64,000 nt of DNA from Eledone cirrhosa (lineage: Eukaryota): contig OZ024742.1 of the NCBI GenBank assembly GCA_964016885.1, positions 319,300,001-319,364,000 of the forward strand, written 5' to 3'. How positions within the stretch are numbered: the stretch's first letter is position 1; every line of letters starts with the position of its first letter. Shown piece by piece: positions 25,674 to 64,000 of this stretch. The notes under the pieces were generated by a model that was not told the origin of the DNA, searched no databases, and saw nothing but the letters and a program-made list of their open reading frames with translations. The translations under genes were made by a program, and so were the position numbers.

Positions 25674-28600
25674 CTAAAAGACAAGCAGAATTGTTATTAA
25701 ATAAACGTTTAATTATTGTCATACATTTTGATAGCAGAATAACCTTTTGAACTATTCAGTCAATGTCACTACATATGTTTGGTTTCTCATGATAACCTCA
25801 CATCATTATCATTTAACGTTAGTTTTCCCTGCTAGCAAGTGTTGGTTGCTAAATCTACATAGCTGAAGTAAGACCCATATTGAAATACTGCTTAGATATA
25901 TGAGGCAGTGTTGCTGCTACACACAGAGACTGCAAATAAAAGGCTACCCAAGTGAATGGCAATGAGTTATTCAGCTCATAAGTGTCCAGTTTCTTCCTGT
26001 TTCTTCTAATGCTACTACAATAGACTACACTGTTCTCAACTAGCTAGCTACATACCCTCTCATATTTCTTCCTACTCCTGTTACTTCCAAACATTTGCCC
26101 AGTCCTTACACCCTATAACTGCAACCTAATGGAATTCCCTAACCATCCATGCTTATCATAGAAATATTCAAGGTGAACATAAACCATATCATTTCACTTG
26201 TGTAAGAGGGTCTACAATAGGAACTGCCTTGCTTGTAGTGTAACTTGTATTAGTTATTGGAATTTTTTAAAATCCCTGAGGAGTATTGATTGACCACAGT
26301 TCATGTTCATCATCATCACCGTTTTACGTCCATTCTTCCATGCTAGCATGGGTTAGACGGGTTGTCTTATTGTGGGCAGTGAGCTTGTCTTGCTCATACT
26401 GGAACTGATTTGGGCTTGATTTCTTCAGCTGGATGCCCTTCCTAACACCAACCTCATTTACAGTGTGGGCTGGGTGCTTTTTTTTGTTGTGGCACCTCCA
26501 TGAGCACTTTACAGTGTGCGCTGGGTGCTTTTTTGTTGTGGCACCTCCATGAGCACTTTACAGTGTGCGCTGGGTACTTTTTTGTCGTGGCACCTCCACG
26601 AGTACTCTACAGTGTGGGCTGGGTGCTTTTTTGTCATGGCACCTCCACGAGCACTTTGCAGTGGCTCATAGTTAAAGAAATTCTAATTTTGATCTATGAG
26701 ATTATTTTAAAATTAAAGTTCTCGATTTTATCAATTACTAGCAGTGGTACCCGGCGTTGCACAGGATAAGGTATTTTGGAACGCGGGCCGCCAACAGACC
26801 TAATCGTAGAAAAACTGCATGCCTGGACAATATGTAAAGAAAATAAACCGAATACTCTGATGGCTGGATAATCTTTAGGATTTTCCTCAATGAAGCAGGA
26901 AAAATGCAGGTTTTCACCTAATGCGGGCCCTAGGGGATCAAGAAGATGAATTTTTTTTTACGTGTATAATATGCCTTGAAATTTCGGGAAAATCAGTTAG
27001 ACGTAATGCCTTAAAAAGACCTAAAAAGCTGAAAAAATGAAGTTTTTCACCTAATGCGGGCCCTAGGCCATAAAAAAGTTGGATTTTCTTTGCTCACGGT
27101 ATGAAGAAGAGACTGACTAATACATAGTTACAATTTCAAGGAAATCAGTGTGACGTAACGCCTCAAAAAACCCCTAAAAAGCTGAAAAAACGTAGTTTTT
27201 GACCTAATGCGGGCCCTAGGGCATCAAAAAGTTGAATTTTATGTGCATAACACTCCCTGAAACATAAGTAATACACATGTAAAGTTTGAAAAAAATTGGT
27301 TGGGTACTTCTCAAGTTTTAGGATTCAAACTCACACACACATACACACAGACATCCTCAGTTTTATATATATAGATAACAATATTTGGATTAGTTTAAAA
27401 CCTTGAAAAAATTAACATGGTAGATACAGTCGCTAAAATCTAGATAACACCAAAACCATATCAAAAATATATACATGCCAGGTGATGCTATTAAGTTAGA
27501 CATGGCCTGGGCCAATACCGGCTGAAACCTATTGAAGTTTTTACTTTTTTTTTTATTACTACTAAGCCATAAAGCTGTGATATATATATATATACTAGCT
27601 GGCCCGTCCGGCTACCATTGGCGTGTTCTACGGCATCTAGATATATATGTATTGCTGATGTACCTAGCTTCGCTTGGATAAACAGACGATAAGCCGTCTG
27701 TGTTGTATAGTATGAATGTTGAAAACAGTATAAATTATTGTTGAAAATGTATAGTATAGTATTACTGTTGAAAATATATAGTACAGTATTACTGTTAAAA
27801 ATATATAGTACAGTATTACTGTTGAAAATATATAGTACGGTATTACTGTTGAAAATATATAGTACGGTATTACTGTTGAAAATATATAGTACGGTATTAC
27901 TGTTGAAAATATATAGTACGGTATTACTGTTGAAAATATATAGTACGGTATTACTGTTGAAAATATATAGTACGGTATTACTGTTGAAAATATATAGTAC
28001 GGTATTACTGTTGAAAATATATAGTACAGTATTACTGTTGAAAATATATAGTACAGTATTACTGTTGAAAATATATAGTACGGTATTACTGTTGAAAATA
28101 TATAGTATGGTATTACTGTTGAAAATATATAGTACGGTATTACTGTTGAAAATATATAGTACAGTATTACTGTTGAAAATATATAGTACAGTATTACTGT
28201 TGAAAATATATAGTACGGTATTACTGTTGAAAATATATAGTACGGTATTACTGTTGAAAATATATAGTACAGTATTACTGTTGAAAATATATAGTACGGT
28301 ATTACTGTTGAAAATATATAGTACGGTATTACTGTTGAAAATATATAGTACAGTATTACTGTTGAAAATATATAGTACAGTATTACTGTTGAAAATATAT
28401 AGTACGGTATTACTGTTGAAAATATATAGTACGGTATTACTGTTGAAAATATATAGTACAGTATTACTGTTGAAAATATATAGTACGGTATTACTGTTGA
28501 AAATATATAGTACGGTATTACTGTTGAAAATATATAGTACGGTATTACTGTTGAAAATATGTAGTACGGTATTACTGTTGAAAATATATAGTACAGTATT

Positions 28601-31600
28601 ACTGTTGAAAATATATAGTACGGTATTACTGTTGAAAATATATAGTACAGTATTACTGTTGAAAATATGTACACGAATATATATTTATATATATATATAT
28701 AATTAATGAAAAGTTGATTAGAAGTGAAGTCAATGCAGACATACAGACAGATATTATAAGCGCGCAACATTATAGCTATGTATCTATCTAAAAAGACAAA
28801 GTAAGAAAGAGAGAGGAATGTTGTATTATATATATTATATATAATAAAGTACCAGTAATGTAGTCATCTTTATTAATATAGATAGAGATTGACAATATAC
28901 ACAGAAATTTAATCCATGAAACATTTTTAAAAAAAGATGATATTATATATAAACTGCAAAACATATGAATGTTTATTTAAACGATCGCTAACCGGAAGTG
29001 TTGACATTTGAAAATGTTGTCTTTAGATAAATAATAAAATATCTTTAATCAATAATAACGAAATTTGGTAGACAAGAATGCCCTCACTTTCTTACTTGGA
29101 AAAAGTAACATCTATGGTGCAAATTTGATGTTGTTTGGTCCAGCCGTTTTGCCAAAAGTTTCTTACATACATACAGCTATCAGCTTTATTAATATATATA
29201 TATATTTTTTGAAAATAATATATGTATCCAGCAGTTCATTATCCAATGTGTCCTTGTTTTAAGACTGTAGGATAGGATTTGACTGCTAACTTTAGTATGT
29301 TGAAAGTAAATGTACATTGGTGACAAAATATTAAATCAGCAGTGACCTTAAGCACCATGGTATATACAAATAAACTTCATACTTAAGGTTCAAAACACCA
29401 GTTATCCCTACAAAAATGTACTTTTAAGTAAGTATAAATCCTGTTAATGAGACACAACCTCACTAGTGTTGGTGATCTACATGATAAACGCATCCAAGTA
29501 CACACTGTAAAGTGGTTGGTTTTAGGAAGGACATCCAGCCATAGAAAGTTTGCCAAAGGATTGGGAGGACCCTTTAGTTGTGTCGAGGATATGACAGCCT
29601 CCCTAGTGCTGGTGATCTACACAATAAAAGCACCCAGTACATGCTGTAAAATGGTTGGTTTTAGGAAAGGCATCCAGCTGTAGAAAGCTTGCCAAGCAAG
29701 GGACCCAAGTTAGGAGGACCCTTCAGTTTGTGCCAAAATGACAACTTCTCTGCACTCAATATGTAAGTGGGATACAGACCTACTCGGCCTGTCTGGGAGG
29801 ACAGTAATGTTGCTTCAGTACTGACTTGGTCTATGTAGACCCGTCCAACCCTTGCTAGCAGGGAAAGTTAAAGATGTTAAATGATGATGATTGGGATATT
29901 TTTTCGTTTTATTTAAATAAATGCCCAATAATCATCTTATTGTATGATATGGTTCTTCCTTTTGTTTAAATATCAGAAATTTATAGGTGTATAAATAATC
30001 ATGGTTAGAATGTCTAAGGAAGAAATCACAAGACAGATTTTCTGAATGAAACCAGCAGGTAGGAGACCTCGAGGTAAACTATGAGCAAGATAGCTGCTTC
30101 TGATAGGATTCTATGGAAGATGTGATTAACGATCCTGACCCCACAACCCTCTCAGGAGGAGGATGAAGATAATCAAAACTAAATACAACCAGAAAATACC
30201 AATTTACCTCCATTCTTTGAAGGACATCCATTCCTTCAATGACTTTACCAAATACTACGTGTTTATTGTCCAACCTAGAGAAAAAAAATAAGATTTAAAA
30301 AACCATTTATAAAATTCAGTGAAAATCTATTTTAGAATATTTTAAAAGCAATTTGAAAATTCTTTCTGAAAATTCAGAAAAGTAAGCGGACAAACAATAA
30401 CAAAATGATACAGTTCAATGAAGATATATATTAGTTTAATGCTTGATATAGTAAGTAGGAAAAAAGCCTTAACGTTTCAGACGTTAGTCCTTCATCAGAA
30501 AATAGAATGAAAAATAAAAGAAATAGAAAGATAGAAGAGAGAATACATGTGTTCAGTTAACCAATTTGGCAGCTGGATTTATGGTGTGATGATAAAAGTA
30601 CTTATCATATTTGGTTGTTCTGAGTTCAACACTCATTAAGTTTGGAGAAGAGTAAGGAATTAAACACAAACATTATTGTCTATAACAGATAATATTAACC
30701 CTTTAGCATTTACATTACTCTATATTTACTATTATATTTTCAAGGTAAACACTTTACCTTACATAATTATCTCACATAATACTGAATCTATCAGATTTTG
30801 ATATTATTTATTTTGAAAACAATACCTTAACATCAGTATCAACAGCTGGTTACAGCTGGTTTGAACAGAAAGAAGTGAGAGAATTCTGGCATGATACAGC
30901 TAGTTTAAATGGTAAGAGTTAACTTTGTCTTTAAAACTTTGGAGAAGATGAAGGAATTAAATAAATAGCAGACCTTAAGTACTAGTGTTAATTAATTCAA
31001 TTATATCCCTCCTCTAATTTTGTGGCTAGATATTATTTACCTACAATTAAGTGGTTTTGATGTGGATGATGCTTTGTCTGTCAATTGTGAAAAGGTTAAA
31101 TTCAAATCTCACATAACACAAACATTACTGTCTATAACAGATATTATTAACCCTTTAGCATTTACATTAATCTATATTTACTATTATATTTTCACAGTAA
31201 AAGCTTTATCTTACATAATTATCTCACATAATATCGAATCTACAAGATTTTGATGTTATTTTTTTTAGAACAATACCTTAATGCAGGTATGAACAGCCAG
31301 TTACAGCTGGTTTAAACAGAATGAGGTGAGAGAGTTCTGGTCGGATACAGCCAGTTCAAATGCTAAAGGGTTAAAGACTGTTTTAGATCAACTAAACAGC
31401 AGACATCAAATATATAAGTGCATTTCTTTACATAAGTAACTACAGGGATATTACCATAATAGTTTGCATACTAAATTTCATTTGTAGAATAGTTACATAC
31501 CAATCAGTTTTCTCTGTACATAAGAAAAACTGTGAGCCATTTGTATTCGGTCCACTGTTAGCCATTGATAATATACCTGCAAAGGAGATGTATCCAAAAA

Positions 31601-46600: not shown

Positions 46601-48344
46601 TACAGGACTAGAAACTGTTTCATTCAAAGGAAATCATCAGGAAAGATGATTTCCTTTGAATGAAACAGTTCTAGTCCTGTAGAAGCCATTTCTATATTAA
46701 ATCTTGTAAATACTCTATGTATTGAGTACCTTACTTACTATGGTTACCCCTGATTGAACCCAGGATTCACACACACATACACATATATATATGAGATGGA
46801 ACACCTTTGATTATAGGTATGCTCAGTCAGCGTTGACCAAGGGCTAAACAACAACACTTGGATATAGTTATTCACCTTATAACAGCGATGCTGCTGCTTT
46901 AACAGAATACGGTTCAAACCCCACATAGTAAAAGATAAGTTTTGAATAGCTAACATGAAATATAATTTACCTGATAAATAGCTGTTTCTAATTTTGGTAC
47001 AAAGCCAGCAATTAATCCAGTGCATTACTGGTGCTCTATTTTATTGACCCCGTAAGGATGAAAGGCAAAGCTAACCTCGGTGGGATTTGAACTCAGACCG
47101 TAAAGGGCTATAACTCGATGCTGCAAAGTATGGTGTCCGACCCTCCATAAGCAAAAACTATAAAAGTATCAACATTTCAAATTCTGTTATATCTTTTACT
47201 GTGGATTGTTTTTGTCCGGTAAGGGTGGGAGTTTTGTCATGGACTTTTTATTAACTGACTGACCATAAATAATAACAAGACGGACAAAATAAGTGCATTT
47301 TTTTTTTATTCACAGAAATAGATATTTAATCACATTTATAAACTAGTTAAATATGTGAAGGAGATTTAAGATATATTTTAATAACTTCCCGCGTAATCCC
47401 TGTTCGACTTTATTATTATGTACTGGCTGATCCTGAATGCTTTTTGTCGTTGGAGGTCGATAAATAAAATACTAATTAAGTATTGCAGTTCAATGTATAT
47501 TTTTATAAGGCATTCTGGATTTAAATAGAGTTATAGTAAAAAAACGGAAACCTGAAAAAGTCCATAATAAAATAAAATCAAACAAAAACAGCTGCCCTAT
47601 TGACGATCGGCGTTGTCATGGGTAGGTAGTAAACAAAACATACCAAATATATCCAAAACAGCTAATTTTTATTCTCTCGAGGAAGATATATACGATTTCT
47701 TCTTCTGAAAACTAGTGCTAATTCAAAAAAAATATATATATAAGACCAGCGGGAGTACAGTAGATAAGGTACAGTTTCAAAAAAAAAAGCACGTGTTGTC
47801 CCAGCTTGACTGCGAAATATTTGTGCAAATAAAATTTTGATATTTTCTTATAGAAATTGTTTAAGCATACTGCACTTAATTTTTTTTTAAGAGAAAAAAA
47901 GAGTGTTCATGAAATCAAATACAATTTTCGGGCGCTTACTTGTAGATGTATAGAATTCGAACCGCTAGAGAACCTTAACATGGTCGCTGCTAGAAGTAGC
48001 AGCCAGATATCCCTCAAACTACACCCTACTAACTTCCAAATAAGAAATGAAATAGACATATGACGTCGGTTTTACATGTCGTATATACTGTTGTCAGGAG
48101 TTCTAGAGTTTTAAGTGAAATGATATGTCAATAACCGGAAAACAAAACTGGATTGTGTACACTCGTATACACGATCGTGTAATTAGGAGTAAAATCTACT
48201 CTAGGGTGCATACGCCACCCAAGTGAAATGGGTAATTATTTTTAGTCATAGCTTCCGAAATGGATTTAATTAGTATTTACTATAACCGATTGCATTGGTA
48301 TTAGAATACTTACCCACATATACAACACGTTTATTTGTCGCCAT
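25602..48344 (-). CDS. PPIE: Peptidyl-prolyl cis-trans isomerase E (cyclophilin-33), 305 aa; complement join(48344-48314,45824-45726,45277-45234,41654-41628,39935-39854,38964-38861,37074-36945,35587-35508,33485-33380,31576-31501,30274-30208,25673-25602)
   Basis: Twelve exons sum to 918 nt with no internal stop. N-terminal RRM ([20 protein letters not shown]...[10 protein letters not shown]...[26 protein letters not shown]) plus cyclophilin domain (NPQVYFDI...PKTAENFR..C..EKGFGY...[15 protein letters not shown]...[15 protein letters not shown]...[10 protein letters not shown]). Confidence 0.97.
26738..27375 (-). mobile_element. Non-autonomous Helitron
   Basis: On minus: A|TCTATATATATAAAA ... 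GC-rich hairpin cctgtgcaacgccgggt ... CTAG|T; three internal repeats anchored on cctaatgcgggccctagg. Confidence 0.8.
27595..28882 (-). mobile_element. Non-autonomous Helitron(s) carrying the 27-bp minisatellite
   Basis: TCTATATTAATAAAG 5' end at 28882; CTAG 3' end at 27595; inner end at ~27651 matches the 50699 element. Confidence 0.6.
27744..28669. repeat. 27-bp minisatellite (GTATTACTGTTGAAAATATATAGTACR)n, about 34 units
   Basis: Direct reading; gives the VLLLKIYST / YYIFSTVIP repeat ORFs. Confidence 0.97.
30208..30274 (-). CDS. PPIE: PPIE exon 11
   Basis: [22 protein letters not shown]; ttctctag / GTAAAT. Confidence 0.95.
30467..30502 (-). ncRNA. Minimal type I hammerhead ribozyme motif (Penelope-like element pLTR type)
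   Basis: UUUU-CUGAUGA-A-GGAC[UAAC]GUCU-GAAA-CG-UU-AAGG; degenerate sister copy at 38495-38533 with homologous flanks. Confidence 0.6.
31147..31374. mobile_element. TTAA-flanked MITE, piggyBac-like (family A); copies at 1-179 (partial), 30695-30922, 40901-41163
   Basis: TIR TTAACCCTTTAGCATTT...AAATGCTAAAGGGTTAA, about 228 bp, non-coding. Confidence 0.85.
31501..31576 (-). CDS. PPIE: PPIE exon 10
   Basis: [26 protein letters not shown]; ctttgcag / GTATGT. Confidence 0.95.
32383..32612. mobile_element. TTAA-flanked MITE (family B); related copies at 16979-17237, 17860-18809, 36414-36659, ~24960-25200, ~5107-5300, ~61430-61600
   Basis: ttaa.cctttt.ttaccatatttc ... ggtatcaaaagggttaa termini. 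Confidence 0.75.
33380..33485 (-). CDS. PPIE: PPIE exon 9
   Basis: [35 protein letters not shown]; donor GTAAGT. Confidence 0.95.
33486..35507 (-). other. U12-type (minor spliceosome) GT-AG intron, PPIE intron 8
   Basis: 5' splice site GTATCCTTTC (35507-35498); branch site TCCTTAAC (33503-33496) about 10 nt before the AG; no pyrimidine tract. Confidence 0.9.
34484..35312 (+). mobile_element. 5'-truncated RTE LINE (PHD-like finger, thumb, (TGA)n tail) inside the U12 intron
   Basis: WSCSICRKG...CMQC...HKRC...[25 protein letters not shown]; tail gacgtaaaatgatgatgatg. Confidence 0.9.
35508..35587 (-). CDS. PPIE: PPIE exon 8
   Basis: [27 protein letters not shown]; U12-type donor GTATCCTTT. Confidence 0.95.
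36945..37074 (-). CDS. PPIE: PPIE exon 7
   Basis: [23 protein letters not shown]...DIVPKTA; cttttag / GTAACA. Confidence 0.95.
37290..37550. repeat. Diverged 50-58-bp tandem repeat in a SINE linker
   Basis: gggagct..catca..cttgcata....cc.cactctaccaagtgctcagatg, about 5 copies. Confidence 0.7.
38633..38817 (+). mobile_element. Young tRNA-headed Meta-domain-like SINE with 16-bp TSD
   Basis: Core gactttgcctttcatccttacggggtcgataaaataaagtaccag; TSD attattaatcttatta at 38617-38632 and 38818-38833. Other copies: 19170-19380, 19395-19610, 37841-38005 (+); 47010-47145, 16200-16620 (-). Confidence 0.85.
38861..38964 (-). CDS. PPIE: PPIE exon 6
   Basis: [15 protein letters not shown]...; ttttcag / GTAAGT. 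Confidence 0.93.
39854..39935 (-). CDS. PPIE: PPIE exon 5
   Basis: [27 protein letters not shown]; tatag / GTAAGT. Confidence 0.95.
40425..40550 (+). mobile_element. OR2-like tRNA/CORE SINE; related copies near 280-400, 35822-35945, 45963-46115, 55975-56090
   Basis: Shared caaccacatgg..ggttcagtccc..ggcaccttg.gcaag.gtcttct.ctatagcc. Confidence 0.65.
41628..41654 (-). CDS. PPIE: PPIE exon 4 (27-nt micro-exon)
   Basis: DAAAAIDNM; cctttccag / GTGAGT. Confidence 0.92.
42077..44200. repeat. 31-bp minisatellite (GTCATCTACATTATATACACWCCATTGTART)n, about 68 units
   Basis: Direct reading; degenerate unit continues at 44774-44835. Confidence 0.97.
44210..44773 (-). mobile_element. Non-autonomous Helitron
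   Basis: A|TCTATATAATACTAAAAG 5' end, acccgacgcgtcacgggt hairpin, CTAG|T 3' end. Confidence 0.8.
44897..45083 (-). mobile_element. Young Meta-domain-like SINE with 17-bp TSD
   Basis: Roughly 90% identical by eye to the reverse complement of 38633-38817; TSD atggtacattacataat at 44880-44896 and 45084-45100. Confidence 0.85.
45234..45277 (-). CDS. PPIE: PPIE exon 3
   Basis: [15 protein letters not shown] (RNP1); tttgacag / GTAAGT. Confidence 0.95.
45726..45824 (-). CDS. PPIE: PPIE exon 2
   Basis: [33 protein letters not shown]; ttctag / GTAAGT. Confidence 0.95.
46585..46697. repeat. Near-perfect ~53-bp inverted repeat with a 6-nt loop
   Basis: Arms 46585-46638 and 46645-46697 differ by two substitutions and one indel. 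Confidence 0.95.
48314..48344 (-). CDS. PPIE: PPIE exon 1 ([10 protein letters not shown])
   Basis: ATG at 48344, donor GTAAGT. Confidence 0.93.
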
Positions 48345-48385
48345 TTTGCTAATCAGATATCACGTGACTTTGTCGCCGGCATTCC
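48337..48385 (-). promoter_or_regulatory. PPIE proximal promoter / 5' UTR motifs (YY1 site over the ATG, E-box)
   Basis: CAAAATGGCGAC (YY1 consensus overlapping the start codon) and GTCACGTGA E-box at 48360-48368; locally CpG-richer. Confidence 0.5.
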
Positions 48386-50698
48386 TTCCTATTTTGTAGA
48401 ATATTTTTTTCTTTTACATCGCTGAACTCATTCAATTAAATAAATTGAAATAAGATAATGGTTTTATAGAGAAAGGGTGCAGCTTAATAAAAAAAAATGT
48501 TTGAATGTATGGATTTCTATTCTGTGCATTATTTCTTTTCTTTTTTTTTATTTGAAAAGAGCTATATAATTTAATTATCAATTATTTGTAAAAAATATGC
48601 AATTATCAAATATGTTCTCTACTCCTTTATATTAGTGACATTACCAGATATGAAGACGTATGATAAACATTTTTATAGAAGAGATAAGTGCTTTGATGTT
48701 ACAAATACTATATTTGAATCTTCAAATACTATATGTATAGTTAGTTATAAAGTGAATTGTTACATTCTGGCCATTAACATTTATCAATTCTCTGGAGACC
48801 TTTTAACTAAAGTTGGGCCTTATATAACATCAGAAAAGTTATAAATTGATTATATCAGACATATAATATAAAATGCCGTTCACCAGGGAAATCTTCAGGA
48901 GTATAAGTATCTTCAACCTTTCCATCAGTGTTATTGGTTTGTCTTTTAATGAAAAATATGAAAGAGATATTACTAGAGAAAAAGATGACAGCTGCCTCAA
49001 TCCAATATTTTGATTAAGAACAAATAGAATATTAATATCACAGCAAAAATATAAACTCTTTTTGTCAGTATCGTAGATTTGCTTGGTTTTTAAATGATTA
49101 AGTCATTCTAATTTATTACTAATTGAATGAATATTAATTACCCTGAGAACCTAAACTCAGAAATATATTTCTAATGCTATATAATGAATGCTTGACAGTA
49201 ATTTTCTTCTAAATTGTTTGTCATAAATTTGGAGGAGATTTATATCTAAAAAAGGCATTGGTATTATTATTATTGTAAGAGTTTATGTGACCAATTCTAC
49301 AGAAAAGTAAGCAACCAGTGTGGTTTGTATTTTGTTATTAATGCTATTGGGAATGCAGAATTTGTAAGGACAGATTCCATTGAAACATGGAAAAACTATT
49401 TTGAATATCCACAACTCTTCCAATATCTTCATTATTGCTATCTTGTTTTAACACAACTTCATGTGGTCGTGCTGGTGAAACGATGAAAATATTCCCAGTA
49501 CAACTTGTCAGATGGTCATTTTGGTGTTACAATCCACACTGTAAATGTGGTTGGCATTAGGAAAGGCATCACACCATAGAAACCAAGCCAGAAATAGTTC
49601 TGAGTAAGACATAATCACCTGTTCTGATTTGTCTCACGAGACAACTCATCTAACCCATGCTAGCATGGAAAATGGACATTAAACAGTGATGATGGTCATC
49701 ATTTATAACACAATTACATTCATTTCATCATTTCATTTTACATCCGCTTTTTCCCTGCTTGCAAGGGTGGGACGGGAACTGATGCTGGCTTGAATTCTAC
49801 AGCTGGATGCCCTTCCTAACACCAATCTCATTTTACAGTGAGTGCTTGGTGCTTTTTTTGCCGTGGCACCTCCACGACCACTTTGCAGTGGAATGATATG
49901 GACCCCAGTCCCTATCATCTCATTTCTACAGTTGAGTAAACTGGAGCAATGTGAAATAAAGTGTCTTGCTCAAGGAAACAACACATCACCCGGTCTGAGA
50001 ATTGAACTCACAACCTTTCGATTGCAAGGCCAATGCTCTAACCACTAAGCCATTGATTGCTGTTGTGATATAACAAAATTATAGGATGTCCTACAAACTA
50101 CCTTGGCCTGTATTGTTATATCTCTTCACATTCTGATCGAAATAAAATTAAAGATTGTATAAAAGTGAAATATAGCTTTTCAAAATTTTTTATTTTGTTT
50201 CAAGATCTCAAAAAACTGGACTAGTCAATGTGAACAAAAACATAGCTATTCATCATTTAATGTCCATTTTTCATAATGGAGTGATTGGACAGGTTTTCAC
50301 AGACAAAGCCAATACTTAATTGAAGATAATCTTCCCAGAGAAGCTGAGGATCACATCTTGCTTACTTATCTTTTGATTTTGGAGAGGATTCTATTGTATG
50401 TCATAAATTATGAACATGTAGACTATTAAAAGCTGATTTAAATAAAACTTCTTGGTAGTAATTTTGGTGGAGCAATATATTAGTAACTCACTTTTAGAAT
50501 AGGTACACCATGTCTTTGTGTACTGTATAAAGTAAAAAGGCTAAGTGACAGGAAGAATACCCAGCTTTAAAATATCTCAGAAAAACCATCCAAAATATTG
50601 GATGTAAAATATTTATACATATTAAATGATTCCATGAAAATTAGAAGCAACTATCAAATATTAAAACCTAATGACCTTTTAAATATTTTATTTATAAA

Positions 50699-51222
50699 CT
50701 AGCTGATGTATCCAGCTTCACCCGGGTAAACAGATGATAAGAGAAAACAGGTAGAAAAGAAAACGACTGTATTGGATGTTTGTCTGGTTTAATGTGAGGC
50801 GAGACCATGGTGTGTGTGTATGTACAAAAAAATAGATAAACAGTAAAACATCTTTGATACACCAGATTCTTCGTTTTACCATTCATGCATAGTATAAGAA
50901 GATTTCTAAGTATTCCCACTCGTGAACAACGTACATATAACTGTCCATGGGTAAAAACTGATTCTCTCATATTCAATCCTACAACTTTAAGACTCTGACC
51001 CTAAGCTTTATTTATGGTCATAGCAAAACTGGCTTGGTAGAGAAACGGATGTGCAGAATCTTGGGAATAAATATATTTTCTCCTTCATGATTGCCTCCAA
51101 GAATAGTGACTTCTAGGAGTTTCATCATCTGCCTGAGAGTTAAGCATGTGCCATCACATAGACAAGGCTGGTCCAGGTTTCTCAAAAGGATGATGGGAAT
51201 TCCAATCTTTTATATATATAAA
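50699..51222 (-). mobile_element. Non-autonomous Helitron
   Basis: CTAG end with adjacent imperfect hairpin; tatatatataaaag other end (TC mutated). Confidence 0.6.
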
Positions 51223-52479
51223 TGTATGTATGTGTGTGTAAACCAGCATTCAAATCGGACACTGGCCACAAAATATGATCATCACTGACAATGAACGTGC
51301 AGAGAGCATCCCTTATGGTTGTCTCCCAACCTGCTAGAAATAGCAGTCAGGTTGGTTAGCATACCTGGGATATTTTTCTTCTTTGATGTTATACAGTTAG
51401 TATCAATAAACCTTCCTGGATATACTCTTATTCCATTGCTGTACTTACTTTTCAATTGTCAGTTGTTTTGGTTTTTGTGTGATGCATGAAGAAACCAACC
51501 AACCAATAAATATCTTTTATATTATGCACACACACACATTACAGTTTTTAATTACATATATACAACACAAAATAAATCTAATGACTGAAATACCAAAATC
51601 GAATACTTTACTGATAATTCAAGGATAAACACATTTTTTTGTAAAATTCCTTCTTTAGTTCTCTCAAACTTTTACAAATGTTTATAGTATCTTTACTAGT
51701 GGACAGAACGTCATAAAAATTTGCAGTAAATTAAAATAAGGACTTTGTTTAATGTGATGCAGTTGTAGTACTGTTTTGTACCTTTCAAGAATGTCTTGTT
51801 AATGTGGTTTCAATGGTACAAGGCATTAAGAGTTAAGGCAACCCAAAACATAACAAGGCTGAAGCTTTGTAAAAGCCTTCATGAGTATCACTTAATACTT
51901 CAGTAAGATGAGACATTAACAATGGCAACCGAGTTACTGTGGTAATCAAAGCAATCAACATTCAGTTGATACATTTCATGAAGACACTCAGAATAGAGGG
52001 CCTTGCCATATTAACTCGATTCCCCCATATGCAGCAGTCCTGACTATAAAAAGCAATGGAATCAGATTCATCTAGACTAAATAAACCAGACAAAGGATCA
52101 ATCCAATCACCAGAAAATTTAACACTCACAGAGATTAAGCAGCACTTTGACTACTGATCAGAAAGAGTTAAAAATGCTTTGACTGGGGTTCCGCCAAAAG
52201 GAGTAAGGCTCTTTTCACAATCTTCATAGTAAAACTGACAAGTTTCATAAAGGTTCATTATTTTTAATTGTTATTTATCATATCAAAATAGTCTATTTCT
52301 TGTCCTGCTTAAAGCAACATAAAACCAGTTTGCTATCCCATGTAGTATGATAATCACCTACCTCATCCTTCCAATCACTATTTGTTGTTTGACAGCCTCC
52401 TGCTTCAACACTATCTCTTTAGCATGATTAATTAAATACATAAGCTAAATTAATATATGCAGATTAATAAATGAAAATG

Positions 52480-52665
52480 AGGCCAAGGAAGATCAGAAAG
52501 GACTTGGATGGATGTCCATCAGGATCAAACTAGGCTTGGCCTGGCCCAAGTGAGACCAGCAGACAGAAACACATGGAGAGGGATGCTAAGGAGCGCTGGC
52601 AGACAGGACCCACCCCTACTTAGAGATTGTGTCCTGCATAATCAAAAACTGGAGGATGATGATGA
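52480..52665 (+). mobile_element. Short degraded LINE 3' fragment
   Basis: GR..RTW.D / DR.TWR C-terminal motif ending in gatgatgatg. Confidence 0.5.
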
Positions 52666-55600
52666 AAGTATAGAAACTGCTATATTTCATGCCCACATAA
52701 ATATACAATACAAATGGTGAAGTAAAATTTAATCACACTGGTATAACCAGTGCTTGATCCTATCAAAAAAATATTGGTAAATTGAAATGCCCATCACATG
52801 CATACTTTTGATTTTGTGTGAAGATATCACATACAATAGTATATATAGAATAATGTAAATGCTAAAGGGTTAGATAACTACTAATTCATGGTTTTATAGT
52901 AGTATTTAAAAATAAATTTCTGATCCAGAAATATTTAATTGTGTGTCTATTCTTGACTACATATTTATTAAATCAAGTTAAGATTAAAATTTGTCCAGTG
53001 ATTCTTTCCTTAGACATTCTGACCACATGTCCATAGTACTGTGCCATGTAGTATTTTCTCTTACCTGTAAATCTGTGTAATTGATATACAAATCAAAATA
53101 AATGATATTCCACCATCTTCAAACAAAATGTTTCTTGCATTCTCACAAGGCCACAAATACAAGCAAATAAATAAATAAATAAAAGACAGAATCAGGTCAT
53201 ATCATTTTTATTAATAAAATGGACAGAGATTTGGAAAATAAATATTTGATAAAAAAATATACATAGCATAGAGTCATCATTTATTAGCACAAAACTGTCA
53301 TTTGTACCAGTGGTTTTAAAATTTGTTTCTCCATATTACAATGGATCAAGGTTGGACTTCTCTGCAATACAGTATCCTAATCCTGTGATATAATGTGAGG
53401 CTCAATATTCTCTAGTCTGATTTAATTACTTTTCTTGAAGATACTTTGTCCATTAATATGTGACCTAATTTATCCCCATGTACCCTCTACCACAAGCACT
53501 CCTTAACTATTCTCCCTATCACTACACCCTCCCTCTAGAACCACTCCTTAGCTACTGCCTCTTCTAAAGCCTTAGATACACTCACTATCGCACTCTTGTA
53601 ACCACTCTCCCTACCCATAATCCCTCTCTCCATTACTATACCTCCCATGCAGTATTGATCACAACATCCACATCTCTCTGTACTATCAGTCACCTCTTCC
53701 CCATTCATCATCAAATCCCACCACACTATCTCCCATCTCCTCTGCAACCCACAGAGCAGAGAGAGCTCTTCAGTTGGGACAATGACTAACCTCTTGTGTT
53801 GGTGCTACAAAAATGCACTTGGTACACATTGTAAAGTGGTTAGCAACAGAAAGGGCACCCTGCTGTAGAAACAATGCTTAAAAGGGTTGAAAGGGCCCTT
53901 TAGTTGTGTCAACAGTGCAGCAACCATGATAAACACATCTAGTACACACTGCAAAGCGGTTGGTGATGGGAAGGGCATCCAGCCATAGAAAGCTTGCCAA
54001 ATAAAAGATTGGGAGGCCTCTTCAGGTGTGTGATGACTTCTCTTGTGCTGGTGCTCCGATAAAATCACTCGGTAGAATGTGGGTCTGTATGTCAGCGTGA
54101 TGCAGAGTCCCCCACCCCAGCCAGTCTGGGAGGTTAGTAGCCCCACTTCAGTATTGGCTTGGTCTGTGAAGATCTGTCCAACCTTTGTCAGCAGAGACAG
54201 CTGACATTAAATGATGATGATGATGATGATGATGGTATAAAGAAAGCATTTTTTGTTATCTTAGGTGTTGACCAGGTCTATAATCTATACTAGTTAAGAT
54301 ACTATTTTAAAACCAGTCTGCTCTAAATGTCATCTCCAGACAATCAGAATTTCTTATCTGGGAATAAGTAGTAATATACTCAAGTTTTTTCTAAAAACAT
54401 TGTAAAACAAAATGTTTAAAAAGCTGGAATTGAAGGTGCTGTAGGTTTGGATTACTTGGAGCTTATTTTCTAATCTCTTTTAGGGTATTAGATATGCAAA
54501 TACAGGTTTTCTTCTTGAGAAAAAATATAACCCAATATAGATTGGAAGTATTATGGAAGTATTGTCAATACAATCAAATACTGTGAATATGATTTCTATA
54601 TTGATCTAAAGATATTAAACTATCAATATTTTATTTTTTGAAAATACATAGCTGAACTGCCACAACTGAGGAAAATTATCACACCTGGCTTGGCTTAATT
54701 TAAGCAAAGCAAAATAGACTTTGTACAGTTGCTTGAAAGAAAAGGCTTTGTGGAAAAAGCTTAGACATATCATGCTACTTTAACCACCTAATAATTGACA
54801 GAGTTAAAATTAACTTCTACAGTTTACTTTAGCATATTTTTTTTTTAAAAGCATGATGCCATCAGAAGTAAAAAATAAATTTTACATACCTTTCAACGTT
54901 GTTCAGTCTATTTTTCTTCTTCAGATAGTATATCTAGAACAACATTATTTGATGTATTCTTCTTTTCTACTGGATGTGCTACAAGGGTGATTTGACATTT
55001 CTACCAGGTCAATTAGTATCCCAATCCAGTTTAACATGCATGTAGTAATTATTCTATAATTTTCTATTTTTTCATTATTTAAATCAAATTTCATCTAACT
55101 AACAATCAAATTTGTCACAAGAGAATCATCTTCAATGCTGGATTTTGAAGGTCTCTAAATGAAACTATGCCATATATTTCTATAAACAAAAATTGAGAAA
55201 AAAAGACTGAAGATGAACAAAGCTTGATTTTTGATAAATGACAAAATTAATTACCTTATTCAGATAAATCTACGGAACAATTGTCAGTATAAGCCTTTTA
55301 TATGTGCTAGACCCCTAGATTCTTTGTAAATATCTGCCTTGGAAGATTACCTGTTATCATAGAAACCAATAAACATGCCAAAAGTCTACCTCCTTCTACG
55401 AGATGTGGTATGATAGCTCGTAACTCCTGAAGGAGTTGCAGGGGCATTGTAGTGACATACAGCATTTCAAGCCCTCTCCAGGTCTGAACACAACAGATTT
55501 CTTCCAGAGGAGGCTTGAGAGAGAGAGGGAAAATAAGAGATATAAACGTCAAAGTTAAGCTCAGAGAGAGAGAAGAGAGCCAGAACGAATACCACAAACA

Positions 55601-56559
55601 TTCTATCTGACACCAAATTGCCTCATGAGAAGCATTGCTAAAAAAAAAAAAACTCTAATAAGATTATTCATTATTTCAATTTCTTAGACCGATATTCAAT
55701 TTTCTTAATTGTTGTTTTTGGCAACGACTTATAAATATTATTGATTTATTAGACCTGTTTCTTGAATGTTCATATTTCTAAATAATTCCTGAACTGAGCA
55801 TGAAACCTAACCACTCTTCAGATATTTCACTTAAGGTTTATGTAACCACTTAAATTATTGTTTTACCAACCCAACTCAAGCCAGCATGGATGGTGGACAT
55901 AAAATGATGTTGATGAATGCCATATTTAAAAAGAAAAACAAGAGAGGGTATACATAAGCACATATGACAGAGTAGTATAGAAGTTTGCTTCAGAATGTCA
56001 TGGTCTTGGTGGCAGCTTGGACAAGTGTTTTCTACTATAGCCCAGGGTTAATCAAATACCTTGTAGTTAATTTGATAAACTGAAACTGTGAGGTCTTGTC
56101 AAACCTATATAAGCATGGAAAAGAGGATGTATAAGTGATAATGATGACTACACACAGTTCATATATATGCTAACAGAGAAAGCAGATGTTAAACAATGAT
56201 GATATGTGTGTGTGTTTTATATCCAGTTTAGAATAGGTACATCTTATCCCTATATGTCATAAGAAGAAACTAAATGGATTAGAGTCAAGAAGGGGCTATA
56301 AAATATTGCCTAAAATTCTCCCATCCAACCCTTGTCATCATGGAAAATTCACTTAAAACGATGATGGTTATATATAATGTGTGTGTCATAGGTAAATAAC
56401 CAGAAATTATAAACTCTGAAATAATGGCTATAAGAAATGAAAGAAAAGTAAAAGACTAACCCAAGTTGAATAGCGGTAAAGGTAACTATTTTTATTTCTG
56501 GTATGGAAACATCAAGAGAGTAAAGGTAACAGATTTTTACTTCTGGTAGAGGAACATCA

Positions 56560-58350
56560 AGGAAGAGAGTTACCAATGTTTTAAAATATCTCCAAAACCC
56601 ATCTGTAAAGAAGTGAAACTATAATAGATTCTATCATCTTTGTGATACAGGTGTAATATCAGGAGAGGAGGCTGTTACACAGTATCATCTAATTGTCTGT
56701 GATGTGAGGGTGAAAGGTGGAAGGAATATAAACCAAGGCTGAAGGTTAAAAGAGGCAACAGTGAGGGAAGCTCTAAAAGAGAAATTGAATATGTTAGAAG
56801 ATGACACAAACCACCTTGAGAGTGTTTGGAAGTCTTTGAAAGATGATAAGTTAGGAACTGTTGGTGATGTGGTAAATGAATAAAAGGATCATAAAGCTAC
56901 ATGGAAACATGGTGATGGAATTATGAGGTTGGAAAGAGGATTGATGAGAAAAAGGAAAGATTCAGAAGATGACAGAGAGCAGGGGTATGATAGTAGAAGG
57001 GGCAGATTGTCAGAATTACAAAACAGTCAATGAGGGGTGCAAAGAAAGAAGCAACAAAAGCACAAGAGGTACGTAGAAGAATGAGGTGTTTAGGATTGTC
57101 AGGCAGTTACCAAGAGAGAGATGTGATGTGACAGAGGTGAACTGGTTGAAAGAAGAAGTGTGAGAAATTGTTGTACACTAGAATGAAATTAAGGAAAGAT
57201 GGACGAGAAATATGGAGAAATTGTTGAAAGTGTAGAACAAATGAGATGGTAACAGAGAGCAATCCAGTTCTTGAACCAGCAAAGAGAAAGTTCGAGGAAA
57301 CATTGAGAAAGGTGGAGAGTGGCAGGACAGAGAGCCAACAAGAGTTGTAAGATATGTTGAAAGTAGCAGAAAGTTGGGGTGCAAAGAGGATGACAAGGTT
57401 GGTGGTGAAAGAAGATTATATCCTAGTGGATTGGGAATTGAGTATTCTCATCCCTGTATACAAGGAGAAAGGTAATCCTCTAGACTGTGACTCATATAGA
57501 ACAATTAAGCTATTGAAGCATGTATTGGAAAGATTGTTAGAGAAGAGGATAAGGAAAAAAGTGAAGATTGATACAATTTTTATTGTGAGGTAGTTTCTAA
57601 AGTACATAAACAAGAGGAAGTTATTTTTTTGAGGGTTTGTTGGCCTGTAAAAATATTTTGATAGTGAAGTAGTGGCATGGGCACAGAGTTAGGAGTAAGA
57701 GGAATGCACAGAGTGGGTACTTTGAAAATGTAGTGGTGTGAAAAGATTATTAAATATTGTGGCAGAAGTGAAAAGTGTATTAAGGGAGCTACACAGAGAG
57801 AGGATGTTGAGTTAAATCTTGGGAAAAGTATCAAAACCTTACCTTAGAAACATTAAATGGAGTGAAAAGATCAGACTCTGGGACAGTATCTAGAGTTGTA
57901 CATTGGAAGAAGTTCCAGGAACAATGTAGTGTGTATGCCAATGAGAATAGTGATGCTGAAACTAAAGGGAAAGGTGTATGCTGACTGTGTAAATAGTAGT
58001 GTTATGATTTTATGGGAGTGAGACATGGGTGATGGACACAGAGCAACAGAGAAGACTCGAAACAATGGAAATGAGAATGGTCCAATGGATGAGTGAAGTA
58101 TCACAGAGAGGAAGACAATGAATTGTAGAGTATGATGGGAAGAAAGCCATTGATAAATATTGTAAAGAGAAATGGAATGAAATAATTGAGTCGTGTGTTG
58201 AAGGATGAAAGGAGTGATGGTAGTTAATGTGGATGGGGAAGGCCAATAAAGACATGGTTAAAAATGGAGGATGGAATTACAGCCAGGAGTTGGTGAGGGG
58301 ACTGCAGAAGCTTATAATGGGGCCGACTTTAGCAGGGAATATGGCCTTAA
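56560..58350 (+). mobile_element. Old, heavily decayed RTE LINE
   Basis: Relics of LIPVYKEKGNPLDCDSYRTIKLL, TW.WN.EV, LKGKVY..CV and GRP.KTW; purine-rich. Confidence 0.75.
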
Positions 58351-61300
58351 AATGCTTGTTGCACGTCCAACACTAACAACTTAATAACTCAACTGTGAAG
58401 TAGAAATGGAACTCTTTTTCTTTGACAGCAGCAGGTCAAGTTAAATGCTTTGCTCTGAACATCTCACAATAGCTGTAATAAATTATAAAATTAGTCTAGA
58501 ATTTTAACCTCACCCACAGATCTAAACCCCATAATATTACTTATCTTTGATATGCTACTGTCAAATCCATTTTTACCTATTTCCAGACTTCATCTCTTCC
58601 CAAACTCAAAAATGTTCAACACCCAAAACATGATGAAGTTGCTTCTACCTTAAAAACTAAAACGTGAATCCTATTTGCTAATATACAATTTACAGACTAA
58701 AATGATTCTTTGTGAAACTGAAATGGTCGGTCTTGAATCTACCTGTCAGAATGATGACAGCTTCTGTAATGGTCTCCTCATATTAAAATATCTTGCATGA
58801 TTACTCATGCACGAAGGACAAATGTACATAATTCCACATGACAGCAACTATGATCCCTCCAGACCTAAAAATAAATAGAAAAGGAGAAAAAATTAAGATG
58901 ATATTAACATTTATTTCTTAAACTGAAGACAAAGTAATTTTCAAATGCTATGAAGTGTCCAAATAAAGAAATACCTTCAATTCATACAAAAAATATTTTT
59001 ATTATGAACCTATAGTTTAGACATTATAGAGGCAAAATTCATAGAAATTAAATTCTGATAACTCTAATGAAGAATATTTAAAACTGAAAAATTTTAATTG
59101 AAAGCATACCAGATGTTTAATGCAATTTTAGATAATTATCTGAGAGATAGAACATTGTCAATATTAACATAGTGCAAGTGCAATCTTATTGGCACAAACT
59201 TTGGTAATAGAAGTCCTGCTAAAGAAAATTTTAATAACCAATAAATATGCATTGATAACCAAAAGATTTCCAGATCGTCTTACACATTCATAGAGCATTA
59301 ATGTTTTTGTGGGGTTTTTTCAACTTAAACTATGAATAGATTTATATGCTGAAGATCTTTTATCATATTTTGTGTCTATTTTCAGTGATGATTAAAACAT
59401 CAGCAAACATTAAATATGTGTTTACATATTTTAGACAATATTTTTGTGTGAGATGTGAGTTAACAAAATTTAAATACTTTTTTCTTCTCAAGAATTTTTC
59501 TACTATAAAGTCAGGAATTATGTTTTTATAGCCGATTCAACAATATAGAATTAATGTAAATGTTTATAGGAAAATGTTCACATTGTTTAATAACCAAAAC
59601 AAGTGTTCTTGAAAACATTTCACATCAGCCCATATTGCCTTAGTAAATTAGCTCAAAATGTAATTTCTGTACTATTATTGTTTGTGGTGTTTTGTTTAAA
59701 AATACTATATTTTCTCTATTGTACAATATGATACTAGAAATCCAAGATTATAATTGTATTTTTAATGTGGTAAAGAAACAATTACTCTAATATGAATAAT
59801 CAGGGAACTAAATGTCATTTTGAGAATAGATAATTTTTGATTTAAGAAATTGCTAAATATTTTATACATTTTGAAGAAATAAACTGACAAGGAGATAATA
59901 TAAAAAAAAGGCGGGAAGGAAATAAGGTAAAAAGGTGATAGTGTGTAGGTCATTAATTAACATAATAGAAATGATTGTAATAAAAGTTGTGGAAAATGAA
60001 AAATACTCAGCAACAGAAAAAGTTTGTAAGCCTGAGAAATACTTATTGTGATATCTAATCAACATTGCCAAATCTAATCCTACCAGTGAAAGAGAAAAAA
60101 AATGTTTCCAATGCCAACAGTAAACCAAATTTAACATTGTCAGAAGTGAATTCTACAACCATGAAGAGAGAATAATCTCATTATTTGTGAGATTATTGAG
60201 TGGCAACAAAGTTTCAAAAACTTTGAAAATAGAATATGAAAAATTAAGAAATATTTAGTAACTATAAACAGGAAGAGAAACCAAAAATAGATAAAAGTGC
60301 ATGATGAGTGAATAAGAAATTGGTTAAATGAAGAATGCAAATTAAATAAGTGACATTATGAGGTTATAGCCAATGTGAATGCATCATTTAGGCATATTCA
60401 GCATGGATTGGAAATATATTTACCCAAGAGAATTCACTGCAGTATTGGTTGAATGACTTGGTAGGTAGCTTAATTGCCATAAGGAAATCTAATGAATCTC
60501 AAAGATCACATTAGAATATTTTTAGTGTCACAAGTTTACAACCACTCTTATGGAATATTTCAGTATTTATAGACATTTTTCCTGAAGTATTTCTAGATGG
60601 TAAAATTTAGAGTCAGGTGCTAGACATGAGCAAATATTTTGCAGAAGCCATTATTTGATGCATGATATTCTGAGAAACCAGGGCAGAGTTAATACGTACA
60701 GTGGAAAATGAGGCACAAGAAGATATCTTCTACTCTTCATACTGCTTCTCCAAGCCCACATGGCAGAATCCAACTTATGTATGCAGATGGCCTGGTTCTC
60801 AATGCTGGAAGTGCTGCAGAAGTTTGAGAGCTGGAAACAGAATCTGGAATCAAAACGTCTACGAAGGAACATGGTAAAGTGACAAAGACCTTCATAGTGC
60901 AACATAAGCGAGGCTCACTTTGCTCGGTATGTTGAAAGAAAAGAAGTCTACTGTAATTTCAATCACTGCTGGAAACACACCTTTTTGGAATGCATACATT
61001 GACAAATTCCTAAATACCAGTCAATGAGTTATGGATATAGTCTGTAAAAAAAGCAATTATTAAGGCTTACTTGATCAAGAGAATATGAACCAGATGACAA
61101 CTAGTTAAGAATACATATAGCAGCTAGAAGAAATTTTAGTGGTGTTCTGTAGTTATTTACAAAAGCAGCCTAAAAAGGATTTCAAGTAATAGAAGTAATG
61201 AAAATGGGAGAGAAAAAACAAAGGAGTTTACAATGATTGGAATAGAAAAAGATTCACTTAGTATATATAGTTAAATGTAATATGAGAAAACTGAGGTTTT

Positions 61301-64000
61301 TCATGAATTGTGAAGTGAGAATTCATAACAGGGCTCAAGTATTTTATAGATATAGTAAAAAAAAATTAAAAAAAAGTGATAGTAAAGGTAGTCCAAGGAA
61401 AATAGTTTGGTTAATTAACTCTTATTTCAGTGATTTTAAGAATAATCAAAAATTTAGTTATATAACTAACTTTCTCATTGTTAAAGTTATTTTGAACCAA
61501 ACTTAAAGGTTTTAATCTAAAATTATGATGGAGTGTTTTTAGATAAATATAAAGTTTAGTATCATAGAAACAGGGGTGGTTTGGCATCAAAAGAGCTAAA
61601 TATATTAGTAGAATAGAGCAGAGCAGAGAACATGAACATACCAGGCTATCCTTGACAAAGAGGCAGCTACAGGAAGCAGGGTAAAATTAATAATAGTGCT
61701 CAATAAATTTAGTCAGTTGTTGATGGGATGCAGTTTAGTTGATAGTGGTGTACAATTAGAAGAAAAAGGATAGTGGTGGTTGAAATGTACTACTGGGAAG
61801 CAAAGGTTTGTCAGGTGGCATATTTGGATTTGTTCCAGAATGTCATGTGAAGACTACTACATTGTAAGATGAAATTGCACTTAGCATAAAGCTGGAATAC
61901 TTTTAAGGCCCCGAAAGTAAACCAAATCTTCACTGTGCTATATATGTCCAATCACATAAAATAGGGGAGTTTGAACATAGAAGAGGACAGAGCAGGGTAC
62001 GGTGATAGTAAGCTGAACATTAACATAAGAGATAGAAATAACCGATTTTTGGTGTTCAATCCATTGAACATTGTTAAATTAGGATGTAAGTACTTAGCAT
62101 TCCACAGGTAGCTGTAGCCTAAACATAATTCTCAGACTATATTTGCATGACAATATATAAGACCAGGCCTCTGAATTACAGGTACAATACCTCCAATAGG
62201 CCTTCATGTATTTTCCATCTGCCCAATTTCACTTGCAAGGCTTGAGTTGATCTGTGGGATTGAACCTAGTAGCTCAATATTGTGAAACTGACTTAAGGTT
62301 TACTGAAGTTGAAAAAGCACCAGCACATGATCTGATGGAACCTGACAAAAAGCTTCTGATCTGTTATTAGGGATAAAACTGTGAAGCCCATTGGCAGATA
62401 GCTTTATCAGAAAAGTTCTCAAGTGTCAGATACAATTGAAAGCTTTGCTAGTTTCAAAAACTAATTTACTTTCAAATTTTTCAAGATAAAAGACCATTGA
62501 ATGTAAGCCATCTCATGGATTTGGCTCTACTCAAACCATATTGCAGATCACTGAAGTGATTTTAGGTGATAAGGTCATATCTATCATGCTAGAAATGTTG
62601 ACTGGCTCAATGGCCTAGCTGCAGAAAGAACGAACTAGTATTTATTAAGGATATGTCAAAATCCAACAGATGTCCAGTACTGCCCTACCTAATGATTGTA
62701 TGCACATCTTGGTATGGAGAGTAGACTGAAGATTTGCTGTGTGCATGAAAGAGAGGTAAAAAATGTGAGTTTCGTCTGCAGGGGTTATTTTCGGCGCCAA
62801 TTGGATTGAGGAGTTTCTTGACAATCATCTTTTGTAGCTAACAGCTTCCTAGTTGACTGATTGCTAACAAATATTGTAGACAGTATTATTTTGTTGATAC
62901 AGCTACTTCTCGTTGCATTGTGGAATTTAACTTATGGAGAGATGTAGTTACAAGAATAGACTTAGCAGAACTGAATCACATTTACGAAACGAGGCAGTCC
63001 AAACCATTTAGCTTATTTGAACTACCAAAAGCTTTAGAGTATTGCTGAAACAGGTCGTGATCAGATAATCCTAGAAGATTGATCACGAATATTTTTATTA
63101 TCTTTTCCTTCAGTTCTATCCTAATTTAGATGAATCTGCAGTATCACATCGACACATTCGAGACATTTTCTCTGGATATCAATTAGAGGACTTGTCTCAT
63201 CATTGATTTTTGAAATAATTCAAGTTAAGCGATGCTCCAGTATGACCATATTCCTATGAAAAAATAGAGATTAAATAATAAACACTAAATATATATAAAG
63301 GGACCAAACATACCAGTTTATTTGCTGCACTTCACATTTATCATAGTAGCAGTTGACATAGCTGAATGGACAAAAAATCCCCTATGGACTGCTTACTTTC
63401 ACAGATAAGGTACTTAACTGCTTGAGTATCTTATTTCCGCAAATTATTACCCGAAAAACATCGGTTACCGTTTTTGCAGCTTCGCTTGCGATATAAAAAG
63501 ACTAACGGAAATTAGGATTTCAGATTTGAAGAGTAAAATCGCTTTCTTCATCTTTATGCTATGATGCAATGTATGAGCATTGTCTTAAAAGTAAAATCTC
63601 CGTACCTGCTCTAATTTTTTTTAGATTAAAAGCTGAAAAAAAAAGAAAAAGAAAGAAATATAATCCATTATATTTCTTGGAGAAAATGTTCTTAAAATTT
63701 TTCGAACAGTTACATACACACATACATACATAAGTTGTAAAGTACGAAGCAATAGGATTAGGCTTAAATTACTTGTAAGTAATTTATCGATAAGATAAAA
63801 TGAAAGAAAATACAAACAATGGAGAAAAATGGAAATTTAATTTAAAACGTTAACACAATAGGAATACAAAATATGAATACCATGAAGAGTTAAAAAAAGT
63901 ACATATAGATTATTGCCTTAAGATTTATTAAATAAAATCTCAAATACATTCTTAAGTAAGTTATTTGAATAACTTTTTTTTTAAATGAAGGTAAAATTTA

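Follow-up and report, generated by a model that had tools for sequence, protein, structure and literature searches.

Does the DNA that adjoins PPIE (Cyp33) in the genome of Eledone cirrhosa, where no long open reading frame (ORF) is apparent, hold the remains of a dead protein gene, and if so of which one? The 64,000 nucleotides (nt) analysed here, called the window throughout (contig OZ024742.1 of assembly GCA_964016885.1, positions 319300001-319364000; host genome 3.0 Gb), supply the coordinates used below, which count from the first letter unless contig positions are given. An initial annotation had described in 48600..63632, on the minus strand, a gene relic of at least 10 exons resembling vertebrate c-Maf-inducing protein (CMIP), with its coding frame dead and its splice skeleton largely intact. 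PPIE, itself intact, adjoins this relic downstream on the same minus strand and has its ATG at 48344; the distance from there to the relic end at 48600 is 256 nt, in accord with the 250 nt or so first given. With moderate confidence we read three blocks at the 5' end, A, B and B', and perhaps three others, b, D and E, as an old unprocessed pseudogene of one intron-containing protein gene, decayed without selection and possibly unitary (single-copy). Such a gene would have died long ago, and its relic would then have decayed neutrally, accumulating stops, frameshifts and transposon scraps, and would make no protein today.

The reading is carried by a 5' cluster of exon-like blocks and small intron-like spacers, in which the second spacer and block B' were absent from the earlier list:

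63314..63632, minus strand: block A, likely exon relic, with four stops in its best frame (acceptor 15.5, donor 9.7); PH-like only weakly
63254..63313, minus strand: 60-nt intron-like spacer of phase 2 (TG/G), GTATGT...TCATAG, with a GC content of 0.22 against 0.35 and 0.36 in the flanking blocks
62689..63253, minus strand: block B, likely exon relic, with a frameshift near 63125 and five stops in the chosen frames
62619..62688, minus strand: 70-nt intron-like spacer, GTAGGG...CTGCAG (donor 6.8, acceptor 10.2), with a GC content of 0.39 and without an AT-rich step
62470..62618, minus strand: block B', likely an exon relic that keeps the phase of B, with three stops and the donor GTAAAT

Splice sites were scored with matrices trained on 24 real exons of the neighbouring genes and ranked among the 857 AG and 830 GT on the minus strand of the locus. 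The acceptors of A (63632), B' (62618) and B (63253) rank first, sixth and eighth, that of block E (58864), listed further below, ranks third, and the donors at 53064, 61641 and 63313 rank first, fourth and fifth. The fewest-stop frames join in phase from A to B, where the 60-nt intron splits a tryptophan (Trp) codon as TG/G just as the initial annotation had it, and again from B to B', where the chosen frame has three stops against five and five in the other two. As a chain of four splice sites A-B scores 42.0, the control maximum being 41.0 over 229.6 kb, and the six-site chain A-B-B' reaches 56.7 against a maximum of 54.5 across 49 control tiles (221 kb). Used as protein queries against their own genome, in searches that score first-look candidates only, A, B and B' returned nothing but self-matches (next best E 0.16 and 0.24). 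We conclude that these three are likely exon relics with fair support and that about six others are doubtful. A candidate first exon upstream, near 64550-64396, had neither a GT donor nor profile support and was rejected.

The stops might belong to a living gene, as assembly errors or as codons restored to Trp by A-to-I editing. RNA editing is heavy in cephalopods and can turn each of TAG, TGA and TAA into a codon read as TGG, but frameshifts are beyond the reach of editing, 15 Trp edits in 416 codons are implausible, and the 10 PPIE exons alongside are clean. The stops are moreover reproduced in contigs of four sequencing runs, representing at most two samples (X1-X3 from one sample, possibly the assembly's own, and X4 from another sample of the same study), which carry the same letters as the assembly at the stops and pass through A, B and B' without a gap. 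Over 61524-64000 the contigs of X1-X3 have 0, 0 and 1 differing letters and no gaps, and those of X4 have no differences over 62568-63290, 58902-59171 and 56577-58770. On this agreement we reject both assembly error and rescue by editing, regard a living gene as highly improbable, and uphold the earlier statement that the stops are unlikely to be sequencing noise.

The state of decay was assessed on a coding path of 416 codons through A, B, B', D and E, with frames picked for few stops. It contains 15 stops and at least one or two frameshifts. Its codon-position bias is 0.154, compared with 0.050 +/- 0.045 in 1000 dinucleotide shuffles (p=0.014) and 0.24 in real genes, and GC content by codon position follows the order of real genes (GC1>GC3>GC2). 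Over seven pieces, B having been split after the fact, the best frames hold 12 stops where 18.2 are expected (p=0.018). Simulated decay at 0.3 substitutions per site yields 14.1 +/- 3.2 stops and a bias of 0.154, both matching the relic; the relic's GC content of 0.35 points, in simulation, to decay of 0.4 or more, and the estimate leans low because of the way the frames were picked. At about 0.3 substitutions per site the loss would be old, which contradicts the recent gene loss that had been proposed as one explanation. In the same simulation 30% of exons retain both GT and AG, so that some six survivors of a 20-exon gene would need no selection.

Downstream of the 5' cluster the interval is of mixed origin:

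61642..61666, minus strand: possible micro-exon b, 25 nt, in phase with B', doubtful (donor 9.7, acceptor 4.0)
60727..60981, plus strand: decayed reverse-transcriptase scrap of an RTE long interspersed nuclear element (LINE), block C being its antisense (E=1.5e-6 with nhmmer against an RTE copy; E=4e-5 with tblastn against an intact RTE ORF of 1041 amino acids)
59110..59215, minus strand: block D, which may be an exon relic but whose best frame is not in phase with b (acceptor 8.6, donor 8.0)
58743..58864, minus strand: block E, possible exon relic, following a 245-nt AT-rich spacer (acceptor 11.4, donor 7.0)
57074..58353, plus strand: decayed RTE LINE pieces (tblastn E down to 1e-15)
56574..56602, minus strand: possible micro-exon e, 29 nt, chosen after the fact and doubtful (acceptor 9.9, donor 7.9)
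55356..55659, no strand assigned: high-copy interspersed repeat to which the open frame of block F largely belongs (73-89% to other copies by blastn)
55180..55254, minus strand: 75-nt intron-like spacer, GTAATT...TTATAG (donor 8.3, acceptor 6.9), between two short unique stretches free of detected repeats
54892..55105, no strand assigned: old repeat from which block G takes its 3' half as far as the GTATGT 'donor' (matching at 73% a locus with matches of its own at eight others)
53065..53141, minus strand: block H, 25 stop-free codons, with the strongest donor (11.8) and a weak acceptor (under 3)
52362..52444, minus strand: block I (donor 8.9, weak acceptor 3.7)

The 75-nt intron, the GTA donors and the translations quoted in the initial annotation are all present in the sequence, yet its largely intact skeleton of at least 10 exons shrinks to the three fairly supported blocks, B' among them as an addition, and the doubtful ones. 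For A-B-B', perhaps with b, D and E, the remains of a coding gene with several exons are the likeliest reading; C, the frame of F and the 3' half of G are repeats. A match to transposons, which had been named as one outcome that would speak against a gene, was thus found for these three, while A, B and B' match only themselves. The D-E chain of four sites scores 35.1, a value that controls reach 0.5 times per 15 kb. Repeats occupy 5,580 of the 15,033 bases (37%) of the relic interval, although the library used was no larger than about 0.48 Mb. The repeat at 55356..55659, which we take to be a short interspersed nuclear element (SINE) or similar, accounts for the response to block F, which as a protein query against its own genome drew 3687 first-look candidates and 150 scored matches, mostly on its first 35 residues.

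Such findings invite the view that there never was a gene, and that the blocks are a mosaic in which remnants of old transposons combine with splice-like sites arisen by chance in AT-rich DNA, taken for protein through pattern-matching. A number of results do weigh against a coding past. The margins of the A-B and A-B-B' chains over the best control are narrow. Most coding statistics are not significant: codon scores exceed those of introns in block A alone (p=0.033) and those of shuffles in none, stop depletion on the spliced path with a frameshift cost gives p 0.20-0.38, and phase across all seven blocks is no better than in 47-70% of scrambled phases, with a break at the b/D junction. The six site pairs average 10.0 and 7.6 against 5.7 and 5.5 expected after neutral decay, an excess that would fit splicing up to the present as well as the choosing of strong sites. 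The locus has no surplus of strong short introns (two against 1.7 expected per 15 kb) or of strong donors. A genome DNA search with 58720-61080, which contains block C, gave the self match only and overlooked C's LINE; given this and the small repeat library, D, E, H and I may be older repeats too.

Every homology search came back blank as well. Pfam gave nothing but three unrelated matches below cut-off in 16 frames of the locus and no match in 13 more frames and B'. Word searches with B (110 candidates, none at E<=1) and with A plus the start of B (139 candidates, none at E<=10) found no relative, and neither did phmmer with 146 residues of B against 1.84 billion proteins (0 at E<=0.001), a PDB search, or a search of metagenome contigs (168 pattern matches, none confirmed). 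For block F, later found to be mostly repeat, a word search (23 candidates) produced no match and the ESM Atlas no usable one. The AlphaFold model of A alone was uninformative (pLDDT 39.7).

Set against this, A-B-B' outscores 221 kb of controls, has two in-phase joints and retains codon-position bias; it is also without a second copy at the protein level, in the same search that exposed F's repeat at once. We therefore consider a mosaic without a gene unlikely, and retain an old pseudogene as the best account of A, B and B'.

The identity of the lost gene is harder to settle, and that it was a CMIP orthologue, a proposal that no search supported, we regard as an evenly balanced call. The relic seems to open with a PH-like part and to go on in helical-looking text, an order similar to that of CMIP. 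Motifs that we take to be CMIP-like succeed one another in order through A, B, B' and E; C had seemed to carry them too until it proved to be a LINE. They count little because LINE-derived sequence gave the same impression, a point that also favours the mosaic. Unlike CMIP, the relic has no tool match to PF23066 (PH_21, the N-terminal PH of CMIP) or to any protein and no leucine-rich repeat (LRR) region, and its 3' blocks are partly repeats. The blank searches do not refute CMIP, since decay this far would easily conceal a remote homologue.

PF23066 gave no match in the frames of A, the upstream candidate or the locus, in a search whose filters drop weak matches and where only half a decayed domain is expected. 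Genome-wide the family gave nothing over cut-off (14 candidates, two noise matches), as loss of CMIP would lead one to expect. The PH-like exon of the initial annotation survives in weakened form: Pfam has no match for it, and a PH profile built from the host genome aligns the best frame of A to the second half of the domain with p=0.098 for the whole block and 0.009 when trimmed by eye. With hhalign the locus gave p=0.11 and 0.053. Six-frame scanning with PH and ARM profiles, each built from 30 loci of the host genome, gave no match at the locus. Four weak genome matches were discarded as noise on inspection. Elsewhere on the contig, about 290 kb from the relic at contig positions 319074725-319075015, a PH domain lies within an 875-codon open frame, without a shown link to the relic.

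The 3' exons had been described as ARM-like, with the suggestion of an undescribed domain architecture, and neither is supported: Armadillo (PF00514) has no match in the Pfam frames nor at the locus in the profile search, H gives p=0.32 with the ARM profile, and I is marginal (p=0.005 and 0.045 among 14 ARM tests). The LRR families have no match over cut-off in the scanned 3' blocks, where one chance match (E 0.27) is mostly intronic and LRRs may have been lost to decay. Human CMIP has an N-terminal PH, a C-terminal LRR and 21 exons (PMC8068179), and the oyster has a CMIP-like expressed sequence tag (E 2e-62; PMC3191543). The oyster tag and the absence of a PF23066 match in this genome fit a lost CMIP, without proof. 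No joint mention of 'c-Maf-inducing' with 'octopus' or 'cephalopod' was found in the literature searched, supplements and most subscription papers lying outside the search.

The initial annotation also raised the possibility of a protein gene that became a spliced long non-coding RNA (lncRNA). Transcription and splicing of the dead gene would then continue, with some of the old exons reused and selection keeping the splice sites. The site averages of 10.0 and 7.6 do equal or exceed the 7.6 and 7.4 of working exons although the codons look 0.3 diverged, but the sites were found by being strong, and neither strong donors nor strong short introns are in excess over the locus. None of the listed sequencing runs is recorded as RNA. 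Run X4, whose contigs total 88 million letters, those of X1-X3 totalling 1.4 billion, and which for its small size may be RNA, covers much of 53.2-63.3 kb, and 63344-64000, which holds block A, is the sole bin of 30 in which X4 is deeper than X1 (126.7 vs 76). Contig depth is a poor measure, however, and the bin contains a simple repeat. The X4 contigs listed run unbroken across the B acceptor and the 70-nt and 75-nt spacers, and none of the 15 joints listed, of 1118, coincides with a splice site proposed here. RNA over the relic, if any, could come from read-through of a two-RRM ORF upstream, described below. X4 cover is low at 48003-49336 and 59342-60675, a feature not used as evidence.

Relic lncRNAs exist in mammals (PMC5577775, PMC10195156); Rfam over 47000-64000 gives this locus no small RNA to host. 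A host gene for small nucleolar RNAs or microRNAs was rejected on the same scan, whose one match, tRNA-like and below cut-off, lies in a repeat. Overall we hold a spliced lncRNA to be improbable. More improbable still is the fuller version in which the only CMIP gene of the lineage, a gene conserved from oyster to human, disappeared long ago while its relic persists directly upstream of PPIE as a spliced non-coding RNA, selection keeping the splice sites of its first three exons at full strength. An old pseudogene decaying without selection thus remains our preferred reading.

Compared with known systems, the relic is closest in form to unitary pseudogenes, which are reportedly catalogued in primates (PMC2864566): it has stops and frameshifts, no second copy found in the genome, and an exon-intron layout that seems to be preserved in A-B-B'. 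The relic may belong to that class, which is defined by a working orthologue in a relative; its decay is far advanced. It also resembles lncRNAs derived from lost protein genes, such as those of the XIST/JPX locus (PMC5577775, PMC10195156), in combining a dead coding locus, transposon insertions, some strong splice sites and an active gene alongside; what sets them apart is a spliced transcript, a promoter and cross-species conservation. Were the relic that of CMIP, a conserved signalling adaptor would have been lost in this lineage, a loss so far not on record that comparison with relatives could date; were it spliced as well, an invertebrate would offer an example of a protein-coding gene converted to an lncRNA. 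For the present the relic is a candidate for an old pseudogene of an ordinary kind. It also carries a caution, since antisense scraps of LINEs and SINEs can seem to resemble a familiar protein.

The neighbours of the relic frame it on both sides. The first coding exon of PPIE is placed as follows, and 10 further exons were located:

48314..48344, minus strand: first coding exon of PPIE, exon 2 matching PPIE structures at E 1e-13

The last coding exon of PPIE was not located beyond the exon at 30.2 kb (29000-30130 examined). Upstream the locus is bounded by the intronless two-RRM ORF, which lies on the minus strand like the relic, 3 kb past the window edge and 3.4 kb upstream of block A (67006-68049 in extended window numbering); its 348 codons end in a G/R/S/Y-rich tail, and it is probably an hnRNP-like retrogene.

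Two further scraps lie on the minus strand within the interval. The tRNA-like match just below the Rfam cut-off (49995-50052) sits within a very high-copy repeat and is likely a SINE head, and a decayed Pif1-helicase scrap at 50902-51215 (PF21530 E 5e-6) is probably a piece of a Helitron.

On the plus strand, 600-22724 and beyond hold the 3' part of a long coiled-coil gene, presumably TPR-like, for which Pfam gives generic coiled-coil matches only and which ends tail to tail with PPIE. Its introns contain two non-LTR retrotransposon copies, at 1574-4711 (plus strand, with a 1045-codon open frame) and 6335-9573 (minus strand). Tandem arrays at 10302-13748 (about 3.4 kb) and 27491-28863 (about 1.2 kb) give rise to very long false ORFs.

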